A stretch of DNA of 14,614 nucleotides from Granulicella sp. (GTDB lineage Bacteria > Acidobacteriota > Terriglobia > Terriglobales > Acidobacteriaceae). Every line of letters starts with the position of its first letter. Within the stretch, counting starts at the first letter, position 1. Under the pieces are notes generated by a model that was not told the DNA's origin, made no database searches, and was given only the letters and a program-made list of their open reading frames with translations. Both the position numbers and the translations under genes were made by a program. Location of the stretch: assembly GCA_027339965.1 (NCBI GenBank), contig DAHWNL010000043.1:1-14614 (forward strand). The letters run 5' to 3'. This document shows positions 167 to 2,502 of this stretch, one piece after another.

Positions 167-549
167 ACAAGGTAATTACCGCTGAAGACAGGCAAATGCG
201 CCTGCCGTGGTGGGGAGTTCTATGCGTGATTATTGGCGCGCTTCCCGTGTTTTTCTTATTTGATCATTTTGGCAAGTTGGCTATTGCGCGTCCGACGCTC
301 TACTCGGTTGCGATAATTGCAATCACTATCGCAATGCGGTGGAAGCTCAGGGGGCATATGTGGTTCTGGATCACCATGATCTTTTTTGCCGCACTTCATG
401 CCTTGCTGATTCTACTTATTCCATGGACGACCCGGTGGATTCCAGCTCTCGTTGTTATCCCTATCGGTATGGCGGATTCGTACGCAATGCTCTGGGTAGT
501 TTCGGTTGTTGGGCAGTTCAGGGGAGCGTCGAAGGCTGCTGAGAAGTGA
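154..549 (+). CDS. small integral membrane protein (~4 TM helices), candidate immunity protein
   Basis: 131 aa with four hydrophobic stretches (WWGVLCVIIGALPVFFLF, LYSVAIIAITIAM, WFWITMIFFAALHALLILLIPW, WIPALVVIPIG..AMLWVVSVV). Overlaps the upstream stop by 13 nt, shares the low GC, and is followed by a terminator. Confidence 0.7.
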   Translation: MPALNKVITAEDRQMRLPWWGVLCVIIGALPVFFLFDHFGKLAIARPTLYSVAIIAITIAMRWKLRGHMWFWITMIFFAALHALLILLIPWTTRWIPALVVIPIGMADSYAMLWVVSVVGQFRGASKAAEK

Positions 550-575
550 GTCCCCGCGACAGAGCAGTGTGAACC

Positions 576-607
576 GCGAGCCGTCCTTCGGGGCGGCTTG
601 CTTCATC
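576..607 (+). terminator. intrinsic terminator-like hairpin
   Basis: GCGAGCCGTCC-TTCG-GGGCGGCTTGC is an 11-bp stem (2 G-U) with a C(UUCG)G tetraloop, followed by a weak T-rich tail TTCATC, 26 nt after the 549 stop. Confidence 0.65.
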
Positions 608-674
608 TGGCGGCATAGTCAGAGCCAGCGTTCCGGCCATGCTCACGCATGGGCAGTGGGTAGGACACGTCATG

Positions 675-686
675 TATGAAGGCGCA
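675..686. repeat. subterminal inverted repeat, downstream (right) end of the IS
   Basis: TATGAAGGCGCA; the reverse complement of 2035-2046 is TATGAAAGCGCA. Confidence 0.85.
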
Positions 687-689
687 TGT

Positions 690-695
690 TGTCAA
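690..695 (-). promoter_or_regulatory. perfect -35 hexamer TTGACA pointing out of the IS right end (half of a circle-junction promoter)
   Basis: Plus-strand TGTCAA at 690-695 just inside the IR, the usual position in IS110/IS1111 elements. No convincing -10 forms at the predicted junction. Confidence 0.55.
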
Positions 696-837
696 GTGGG
701 ACGTGTTTCTGTCATCTGTTTTATTCTTAGCCGCGTTTTGGCGAGGCCGTGGGTAGCACAGCTGGTTGGGGGATCGAGTTCGGCTCTCCTTTGCTGTGGG
801 TTCTGTTCTTCGTCCTCGGTTGGCTCAACGTATGGTT

Positions 838-962
838 TCGTCATGAATCATGTATTCGCCGTGGTTGCCGGCATGAGCCTGTGCTGATCGGCTTTCGCAT
901 TCACCCCGAGACCTGTGTGCTGGTCAGACGTGTCTCGCGTTTAGCCGAACCTGGACGAACTT
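838..962 (-). ncRNA. candidate bridge RNA / seekRNA of the IS110-family element (ends approximate)
   Basis: Minus-strand transcript reads UCGGC..CGC-GA-[GACACGUC]-U-GACC(8 nt)GGUC-UC-[GGGGUGA]-AU-GCG..GCCGA, then [AGGCUC]-AU-GCCG(7 nt)CGGC-GA-[AUACAUGA]. The bracketed segments match the two target flanks and the two element ends around a GA core. Confidence 0.8.
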
Positions 963-964
963 GA

Positions 965-2009
965 TCAGGCCGTAAGAAAACGCGAGCCCGGAGCCTTATA
1001 GGGTTGCCGTTTGCGCAGCACCCAGAAAGAAGCCTCTGCGAGGTGGCGGGCGACGGCAACGATAGCTCGACCGTGTCCTTTGTTGGGCGCGAGGCGATGA
1101 TAGAGAAGGTGGATATGAGTGCCTCGATATGCTTTGATCCGTATCGCGCAGGTAGCAGCTTCTACAAATCCCCATTTCAGGTACTGGTTGACGTTGCGGC
1201 AGGTGCCTCCATGCCGAATGCGTCCACCGCTGGCGATGATGCGCGGCACAAGCCCCGCGTAACCGGCCAGGTTCTCCGCTCGTGGGAAGCGGTCTATGTC
1301 GCCGATCTCCAGCCAGATGAGCGGCGCGAGGATGTCTCCGATGCCGGGGACAGTCCTTAGCAGGCGCACCTCCGGGGAGGGCTTCAGGGCGACGGCGATG
1401 CGGTCCTCAATCTCTTCGATCTGTGCTTCGAGTTGGTCGAGGGAGGTGAGCTGCACCTGAATCATCGCCGCGGTGTCGCATGGGAGGCGGTCGAGCACGG
1501 TGTCGATGTAGACGCGTTCCTTGACCCCGAAGAGGTCACTGATGCCGGTGGCTTGCAGGCCATAGCGGTCGATGGAGGCATGGATGCGGTGCTTGAGCGA
1601 TGGGCGAAGGTCGCGAAGGGCCATACGTGTGCGCAGCAACTCGCGGCGGGCGCGCAGCTCGCCCGGCGGAATCCAGCTCTCGGGCAACGGCCCGTTGTGC
1701 AGCAGGATAGCGAGCCCCTTGGCGACGAGCGCGTCGGTCTTGTTGGTCTTGCCCATGCGCTTCTTGGCTTCGGTGGGGTTGGCGAGATAGAGGGTGATGG
1801 CCTGCCTTCTCCATCTCATCGACCATCCAGTACCAGTGGCCGGTGGCTTCGAGAGCGATCTCGCTGCCCACTGGCAGCGTGTGAAGGAAATCGATGTACT
1901 CCTGGCGATGATGCTCGACTCTGACGGTGGGCGAGGTCTTGCCCGTGCCTTCAATGGTCACAAAGACCGAGAACTGCTTGTATGCTTCACATCCGATGGT
2001 TGCAGGCAT
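965..2009 (-). pseudogene. IS110-family DEDD recombinase/transposase, frameshifted
   Basis: N-terminus from ORF 1536..2009 (MPATIGCEAYK..IALEATGHWYW..AGHHP) continues in ORF 965..1954 (LANPTEAK..KTDALVA..TVPGIG..EIGDIDRF..LAGYAGLVP..ASGG..LKWGFVEAA..AIVAVARHL). One extra base near 1789-1790. SD AGGAG at 2020-2016. Two expected catalytic Asp positions read E (IGCE) and V (KTDALV). Confidence 0.9.
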
Positions 2010-2034
2010 GGGGCTCTCCTAGTGAGGCGCAGGT

Positions 2035-2046
2035 TGCGCTTTCATA
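2035..2046. repeat. subterminal inverted repeat, upstream (left) end of the IS
   Basis: TGCGCTTTCATA, partner of 675-686. Confidence 0.85.
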
Positions 2047-2281
2047 GGTTCGCCCCCGACGGGTTGCTGCGCGGCAACCTTCGGTTCCCGCGGCGTAAAC
2101 GTGAGCCGCGCCAGTGAGATGCAGCGCGCGAGCTCATAAACACTGGGGTTTTCGTGTTTACGCGGATAAACATGTTGAAGACAAAGCAGCTAAGAGGCAA
2201 ATGGGCGGCTGGCGGTTCCTGCGGGAGTAACCTTGGGTTGCTGTGCGTGAACGAGTTGAAAATGCAAGGCCGGGCATCGGT

Positions 2282-2336
2282 GGTGGAAGTACCGGGGTCC
2301 CCGGCGACAGGTCTTCGTCGCTGGGGTGGAAGTACC
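2282..2336. repeat. REP-like palindrome bounded by a 12-bp direct repeat
   Basis: GGTGGAAGTACC at 2282-2293 and 2325-2336 flanks the hairpin CCCCGGCGAC-AGGTCTTC-GTCGCTGGGG (2299-2326). Confidence 0.75.
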
Positions 2337-2502
2337 CTTCGCTCCATCGCCCGTCAAGCGGCTGCGCTCGCTACGCGACTCCCTGCGGTCGCGCTTGACT
2401 GCCGCCTCCGCTGCGGGTGGGAGCCAGCTATGAGAAGAATGTCTTCTTCTCAGGTTCGAGAACGTGAAGGAGCGAAAGAGCCCGGCCATCCAGCCGGTCC
2501 AC

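Follow-up and report, generated by a model that had tools for sequence, protein, structure and literature searches.

A predicted bridge RNA downstream of a damaged IS1111-type transposase gene in Granulicella, and the covariation of its guides with target flanks and element ends

The DNA analysed here, a 14,614-nt stretch of a Granulicella sp. contig (DAHWNL010000043.1) referred to below as the window, carries on its minus strand an IS1111-type insertion element of ~1.38 kb with a broken transposase gene and a predicted guide RNA gene downstream of it. The features are as follows, the element first and its parts in minus-strand order:

670..2052, minus strand: whole IS1111-type element, counting the letters shared by the two junctions
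2036..2046, minus strand: left subterminal inverted repeat (sTIR) TATGAAAGCGC, reverse complement of the right repeat
965..2009, minus strand: transposase gene, broken, present as open reading frames 2009-1536 and 1954-965
837..959, minus strand: predicted guide (bridge/seek) RNA gene of ~123 nt, from outer stem to outer stem, 137 bits with model R1
959-954 / 842-837, minus strand: outer stem UUCGUC/GACGAA, closing the RNA, added beyond the stems of the initial annotation
888..948, minus strand: target arm, with stems UCGGCU (948-943) / AGCCGA (893-888) and CGCG (939-936) / UGCG (899-896) enclosing the target loop
927..934, minus strand: 5′ target guide (RTG) GACACGUC, reading the top strand right of the insertion point
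910..925, minus strand: hairpin GACC (925-922) / GGUC (913-910) between the target guides
901..907, minus strand: 3′ target guide (LTG) GGGGUGA, with the letters of the left-flank top strand and hence pairing with the bottom strand
872..880, minus strand: 5′ donor strand AGGCUCAUG, candidate RDG, matching at 8/9 letters in the window and weakly supported in the family
858..872, minus strand: donor hairpin GCCG (872-869) / CGGC (861-858)
848..855, minus strand: 3′ donor guide (LDG) AUACAUGA, the same as the final letters of the right end together with T-G-A
690..695, minus strand: TTGACA, a −35-like hexamer close to the right end that may form half of a junction promoter
675..685, minus strand: right sTIR GCGCCTTCATA, one letter off the family's GCGCTTTCATA

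The boundaries of the element were taken from the point at which right-side similarity to a second genomic copy ends, after GACGTGTC, and from the junctions tabulated for 40 relatives together with uninterrupted target sites. Read along the minus strand, the left flank ...GTCGGGGG-CGA is followed by the left end ACC-TATGAAAGCGC and the start codon at 2009, and the right side consists of GCGCCTTCATA (685-675), CAT-GA (672-670) and the flank CGTGTC. The letters shared at the junctions, CGA on the left (2052-2050) and TGA on the right (672-670), leave the boundary ambiguous by 3 letters, and 1378 bp separate the two GA. The sTIRs are 11 bp long, within the ~7-17 bp (usually 11-13) of the IS1111 group, and are complementary at 10/11 letters in the window and at every letter in most relatives and in the second copy, which lies on contig C10; ATGAAAG is kept in every left end read. 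As in the IS1111 group, it is the downstream side of the transposase gene that has the longer non-coding region, with 40 bp on the left (to the start codon) compared to 293 bp on the right (from the stop codon).

Alignment to the intact C10 copy revealed an extra T near position 1789 that shifts the frame of the window transposase, and the first catalytic Asp is replaced by Glu (D8E; IGCEAY instead of the IGCDAP of the intact copy), making the window copy doubly damaged. Its product matched PF02371 with an E value of 4.7e-20 and scored 17.2 on PF01548, below the Pfam cut-off of 29. The C10 copy, which is 84% identical to the window copy, has an open 347-aa gene that scored 219.3 bits on NF033542, ‘IS110 family RNA-guided transposase’ (cut-off 140). 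It combines a DEDD (RuvC-like) N-terminal domain with a PF02371-type C-terminal domain, as is characteristic of the IS1111 group, carries the motif GLVPSIFASG (the S/T-G nucleophile motif) and keeps all five catalytic residues (D8, E54, D92, D95 and S260, invariant in 13 relatives) as well as the same target guides as the window copy. Only these two copies were found in the genome, and their 84% identity indicated that neither was a recent transposition product of the other. With its frameshift, the D8E substitution, one changed sTIR letter and a C-G left junction, the window copy cannot move by itself.

The predicted RNA lies ~160 bp inside the element and starts 5 bases past the transposase stop codon. 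This stretch was visibly conserved across the 55 loci found in a scan of reference genomes (protein identity 41-94%), most of them from Acidobacteriaceae MAGs and a few from Chloroflexota, Planctomycetota and others. Folding of a plain MAFFT alignment of 32 distinct sequences (A3) by RNAalifold yielded the target-arm stems UCGGCU/AGCCGA and CGCG/UGCG and both hairpins, with compensatory changes at 12/20 predicted pairs. From A3 and our structure, with the outer stem included, we built a covariance model, R1, and obtained 51 matches with it in 58 sources. Metagenomes scanned with an alignment of 13 proteins gave 605 stretches and 578 relatives, and R1 matched 78 of the best 80 of these 578 loci, always on the strand of the gene and just after it; the two loci without a match were L098, where the sequence stops at the end of the gene, and L102. 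Over the 95 distinct RNAs, 95.5% of 2269 cells were paired and 20/24 pairs had changed on both sides, a level reached by 0/500 shuffles, with slid controls at 33.6-40.8%; in a smaller set 96.8% of cells were paired and 15/24 pairs were compensatory, both counts coming from alignments fitted to our structure and from sequences that are related and not independent. In the target arm, helix 2 showed compensatory change at 6/6 pairs and helix 3 was nearly invariant (95 rows); the figures were 4/4 pairs for the hairpin between the target guides (helix 4) and 3/4 for the donor hairpin (helix 5). The stems CGC/GCG, UCGGC/GCCGA, GACC/GGUC and GCCG/CGGC of the initial annotation are all present in the sequence, and the covariation across homologues that it had proposed as their test was borne out.

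No relevant Rfam match was obtained in window positions 400-2400 at E values up to 10. Among 151 genomes of the phylum, R1 matched only the Granulicella genome itself and, weakly, one other (G006), indicating that the family is patchy in the reference genomes searched. The latter match (L084, G006:C6:25921-26033, 30 bits) comes from another family of the phylum, is without the whole target loop and may be a degenerate or divergent relative of the guide RNA.

The initial annotation had held that four short segments of this RNA match the target and the donor of its own element, and all four matches are present on the minus strand, as an 8-mer complement, a 6/7 match, an 8-mer identity and an 8/9 match. 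On the target side, GACACGTC (934-927) is the reverse complement of GACGTGTC (671-664), and GGGGTGA (907-901) agrees with GGGGCGA (2056-2050) at 6/7 letters; the resulting right-before-left order, also part of that proposal, is that of IS1111 seekRNAs (PMC11187229). On the donor side, ATACATGA (855-848) equals 677-670, and AGGCTCATG (880-872) matches the reverse complement of CATGAACCT at 8/9 letters, its UCA being complementary to T-G-A and its AGG to CCT of the left end. Within the 14.6-kb window, GACGTGTC occurred only at the junction and in the RNA (expected 0.41; 14/200 shuffles gave at least 2), and ATACATGA in only two places, the right end and the RNA (expected 0.13; 3/200 shuffles); GGGGTGA was unremarkable (2 found compared to 2.4 expected). 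These statistics made the window alone suggestive; the decisive evidence was comparative.

For the comparison, loop strands were taken from alignment columns and junctions were read from the loci by motif and coordinate; a second, inverted IS in L053 was left out of the computations. A first test scored the longest exact runs in 11 lineages with different flanks against 20000 re-pairings, and a larger test scored the mean longest run after removal of constant letters against 5000 random re-pairings, which ignore relatedness. The values for own and foreign pairs, and the re-pairings reaching the own value, were as follows:

5′ target strand (RTG) and right flank: 11 lineages, own 6.78, foreign 2.96, 1/20000; larger set (n=61), own 5.05, foreign 2.67, 0/5000
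3′ target strand (LTG) and left flank: 11 lineages, own 6.00, foreign 3.48, 0/20000; larger set (n=56), own 4.04, foreign 2.21, 0/5000
3′ donor strand (LDG) and right end: 11 lineages, own 7.00, foreign 4.23, 1/20000; larger set (n=22), own 4.77, foreign 2.93, 0/5000
5′ donor strand (RDG) and left end: 11 lineages, own 3.22, foreign 2.92, 2815/20000; larger set (n=59), own 2.56, foreign 2.18, 1/5000

Runs of at least 5 of 6 letters between the LDG and the right end were found in 18/22 own pairs compared to 11/380 foreign pairs, and in one lineage (L057) the RTG matched a wholly different right flank at 12/12 letters. The assignment of the RTG, the LTG and the LDG from these alignments is thus firmly supported by covariation across dozens of lineages with other targets, and both the bispecific RNA proposed downstream of the gene and the proposed covariation of guides with flanks held for these three segments. 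The fourth, AGGCUC against the left end, stayed weak. An anchored count gave 1.80 of 4 letters for own pairs and 1.31 for foreign pairs (39/20000), the crossover-adjacent letter was matched in 3/15 combinations, and one row (L061) was a false left-end call. The 3′ part of this strand, CUCAU, is nearly constant (the strand ends TCAT in 69/95 rows), and AUGCUC is constant in Acidobacteria lineages with differing left ends. In L053 (2900-3260), a pair of related elements is arranged tail to tail, with 8 bp (GACACGTC) separating the right ends, and the right-flank guide of that lineage is the reverse complement of that of the main lineage, so that the two read the same 8 bp from opposite sides.

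The covariation bears directly on whether the region might be nothing more than a 3′ untranslated or terminator structure belonging to the transposase gene, with flank matches that arose by chance. A start only 5 bases past the stop codon and a single-sequence fold mildly better than that of shuffles (−40.6 kcal/mol, z −1.91; 6/200 shuffles fold as well) would suit such a structure. However, the guides change with the flanks across different targets and re-pairings reach their match in 0-1/5000 cases, no terminator-like site was called at the RNA region, and the 8-mers are absent elsewhere in the window, which together leave this explanation almost no weight.

A conserved structured RNA gene adjoining the transposase gene, in which a pair of target guides reads opposite strands and varies together with the flanks, is what is expected of a bridge RNA or seekRNA. 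The covariation of stems and guides would be equally compatible with a folded single strand of DNA, and the stretch could in principle act as DNA, through transposase-binding sites in cis or single-stranded hairpins, with the flank matches reflecting DNA-DNA recognition. A σ70 promoter scan found no complete site in the linear element, and the signal for an RNA in public data, from one of 4 runs, amounts to a single metatranscriptome contig of 213 nt, from a relative, that spans 833-950 with 10 differences and could be DNA carry-over and is not proof of transcription. Against a role as DNA stand the position of the region ~160 bp inside the element and not at its end, and the closely analogous regions of ISEc11, ISPa11 and ISKpn4, whose RNAs are purified together with the transposase and function in trans (PMC11187229). 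Pairs of the G-U type are common in the stems (GU occupies one pair in 90/95 rows), so that RNA fits better than DNA, and we regard the DNA-only explanation as very improbable.

The target itself was found without an insertion at two sites in related genomes. A search of the genomes of five relatives for exact GGGGTGACGTGTC gave 2 matches and 0 control matches; both sites (L086 and L087) are intergenic, lie in the same repeat context and read GGGGTGACGTGTC once, indicating insertion without duplication beyond the shared crossover letters. This context, common to both genomic copies and most Acidobacteria relatives, consists on the left of a hairpin run ending ...CAGCNCCC....GGGGTGA and on the right of CGTGTC followed by a GNRA-type hairpin. 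In the two genomes holding it, 1 to 6 copies of the repeat were detectable per genome. In the Granulicella genome no exact empty target was found, 7 one-mismatch matches were at control level, and a search for the left flank as a repeat returned only the two IS-adjacent copies; an Rfam scan of the empty target site gave no match. Insertion in a repeat agrees with the preference of IS1111 elements for repeated palindromic sequences (PMC11187229), of which the IS110 group also offers a case (PMC12288879). The repeat is a low-copy sequence of Acidobacteriaceae with several hairpins (L086:1420-1560, L087:1470-1560, window 600-669 and 2053-2190).

A further ~400 bp on the left side of the element are common to both genomic copies with ~72-75% similarity (window 2050-2430, minus strand; L002:1180-1560). 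The shared stretch begins at the palindrome GAGAAGAAGACATTCTTCTC and in C10 directly follows an IS5-like ORF pair (L002:402-1162), and a reverse-complement look-alike of its start is found inside the right ends of the elements in L035-L037; the stretch may itself be a small mobile or repeated element. The flanks in L124, L132, L143, L145, L146, L152 and L157 resemble the T-arm and acceptor end of a tRNA (TCGAATCC...GCCACCA). ARAGORN called 0 tRNA in 8 loci and 6 in-silico empty sites, and tRNA 3′ ends as the target of the L124/L143 lineage were therefore not supported.

We put at roughly 90% the probability that window positions 959..837 (minus strand) encode the bridge RNA/seekRNA of an IS1111-group member of the IS110 family. 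This analysis rests on the conservation and position of the RNA, the covariation of its stems and of its guides with the flanks, the empty targets and the anatomy of the element; production of the RNA, its binding by protein and the chemistry of exchange are inferred by analogy. In the proposed mechanism, the outer stem would close the target arm and the donor part of the RNA. In the internal loop of the target arm, GACACGUC would read the top strand on the right and GGGGUGA the bottom strand on the left, and in the donor part AUACAUGA would read the right end of the element and AGGCUCA, weakly, the left-end junction. By analogy with ISEc11 and IS621, the RNA would bind the DEDD/serine transposase and bring the circularised element, its right end joined to the left, to GGGG-TG-ACGTGTC in the low-copy intergenic repeat, where strands would be exchanged at the shared dinucleotide, most likely T-G.

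Junction promoters are known for ISEc11 and IS621 (PMC11187229; PMC12288879), and on that model TTGACA near the right end is a candidate half of such a promoter in the circular form. TTGAC[AGT] occurs at the corresponding place in the right ends of relatives. Joining of the ends, read by eye, would place a [C/G/T]ATGAT hexamer 17 bp after the TTGACA-type hexamer in distant lineages and CATGAA at 15 bp from TTGACA in the lineage of the window.

The dinucleotide at which exchange would occur had initially been given as a GA core. The lineage of the window has T-G-A at both junctions, and the window thus cannot separate G-A from T-G. Across the family, the left junction read TGA in 64/67 elements and CGA in 2, one of them the window, with 1 unresolved; the right junction (n=77) read TGA in 31, TGG in 17, TGT in 13 and TGC in 6, the 10 irregular junctions, mutated or mis-called, being left out of the letter tables. 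The letter after T-G on the left was A in 66/67 elements. Both junctions were readable in 51 elements; in 26 of these, T-G was followed on the right by a non-A letter, and all 26 had A on the left. An exchanged position would sometimes carry the letter of the target on the left, which was never seen, a finding that favoured T-G over G-A; the asymmetry was already apparent in five close relatives (L029, L047, L055, L061 and L065).

The T-G register also reproduces the terminal extensions published for IS1111 elements, which run 7 bp beyond the left repeat and 3 bp beyond the right one (PMC11187229). With the repeat taken as the 10-bp ATGAAAGCGC and T-G assigned to the left, the extensions are 7 on the left, (T/C)GAACCT, and 3 on the right, ACA; in the GA register they are 6 and 4. 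In IS621 the top strand is cut just 3′ of the core (PMC11208158), and the T-G register fits such a cut. The 5′ target strand ends CAU in 63/95 RNAs, with CA complementary to T-G; in the lineage of the window it ends UCU. Points favouring G-A are its symmetric placement between the repeats (4+2+4) and the left junction of the window, which reads C-G-A. Judged from the junction letters, the crossover dinucleotide is probably T-G, and the GA core probably one letter off. In L097, L035 and L103 the right junction has A-G in place of T-G (ACAAGA) and the right-end guide is still AUG; these junctions could be mutations or tolerated first-letter mismatches.

The letter after UG in the right-end guide agreed with the one that directly follows T-G at the right junction in 53/67 rows (44/52 distinct guide pairs), and the left-flank guide always had A at this place. 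Since the letter in the right-end guide follows the right flank and that in the left-flank guide is fixed as A, the guides spell both integrated junctions exactly: the left-flank and left-end guides always carry T-G-A, and the right pair shares A, G, T or C after T-G. In non-A lineages the insertion substrates would then each have one mismatch and the products, which are the substrates of excision, none. It is conceivable, if unlikely, that in this IS1111 clade the four guides are tuned to the two integrated junctions and not to target and donor as separate substrates. If true, such guides would be the bottom-strand counterpart of the ‘handshake’ pairing described for IS621 (Hiraizumi et al. 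2024, PMC11208158), and might favour one direction of the reaction or make its products more stable. In the IS621 design template the right-end guide covers only the first core letter (supplement 7 of PMC11208160), unlike the family described here.

The initial annotation had left open whether this might be an undescribed subgroup. For 93.0% of IS1111 elements a right-end bridge RNA has been predicted (Durrant et al. 2024, PMC11208160), for four IS1111 members seekRNAs have been reported, along with the order of their guides and the way they are naturally re-aimed (Siddiquee et al. 2024, PMC11187229), and a crossover dinucleotide other than CT is known from ISPpu9, where it is AG (Pares-Guillen et al. 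2025, PMC12288879). Every testable feature of the IS1111 group was found, and the kind of system is clearly one already published, in a sparsely sampled host group; Acidobacteria IS names were not found in the portions of the Durrant et al. supplements available to us (PMC11208160).

The closest likeness is to ISEc11, ISPa11 and ISKpn4/ISPst6, which carry the RNA in a long non-coding region downstream of tnp and have sTIRs and a 330-350-aa transposase with the motif GL-P----SG (PMC11187229). As in the ISEc11-type seekRNA, the pair of short matches to the target overlaps at the point of insertion, the top-strand one lying 5′, relatives are re-aimed by changes of the guides, and the target is a repeated intergenic sequence (PMC11187229). 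The present elements differ from the ISEc11 type in forming a sequence family from Acidobacteria and soil or sediment metagenomes with the target GGGG-TG-ACGTGTC, and in matching the donor ends as well, the published seekRNA description being confined to target matches (PMC11187229). The forms of the ISEc11-type seekRNA were measured at 82-154 nt (PMC11187229), whereas the ~123 nt given here are predicted from the stems.

With IS621 the RNA shares four guide segments on one molecule, a target pair and a donor pair, each of which reads opposite strands and overlaps at the crossover dinucleotide (PMC11208160, PMC11208158). The right-donor guide is short and interrupted in both (design template, supplement 7 of PMC11208160), and catalysis by DEDD and serine (PMC11208160, PMC11208158) is predicted here from sequence. 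In contrast, the IS621 RNA lies upstream of its gene, is 177 nt long, has a left-before-right guide order and uses a CT core (PMC11208160), compared to the shared letters T-G of the present elements; the donor guides here are also placed in the junction strands that border a small hairpin within the outer stem, and not in a separate stem-loop. ISPpu9 of Pseudomonas putida (IS110 family) resembles the element in having a fixed dinucleotide inside a repeated palindromic intergenic sequence, but belongs to the IS110 group, is without sTIRs and has a downstream sRNA, Ssr9, that is dispensable for transposition (PMC12288879).

With 95 distinct RNAs, a covariance model, ends and empty targets, a well-supported family from Acidobacteria and other soil or sediment bacteria joins the catalogue of natural RNA-guided recombinases. 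Its many re-aimed guides amount to a natural experiment, one that probably places the crossover at T-G, and the single letter of the right-end guide that follows the target and not the donor may help the design of IS1111-type tools. For the window itself, the result accounts for an intergenic repeat being interrupted by a 1.4-kb insertion, and for no more than that.

The family assignment could be right while the system is a fossil in this genome, its RNA gene persisting only because there has been too little time for decay, a possibility that we regard as real, if less likely than not. The frameshift, D8E, the changed sTIR letter and the C-G left junction of the window copy would agree with it, as would the existence of only two copies, 84% identical, and an RNA barely better conserved between them (110/125 columns) than the gene (883/1045). 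The C10 frame, however, is open over 347 aa with the five catalytic residues and the same target guides, and all 12 of the 12 RNA differences between the two copies spare the target guides and the stem pairing.
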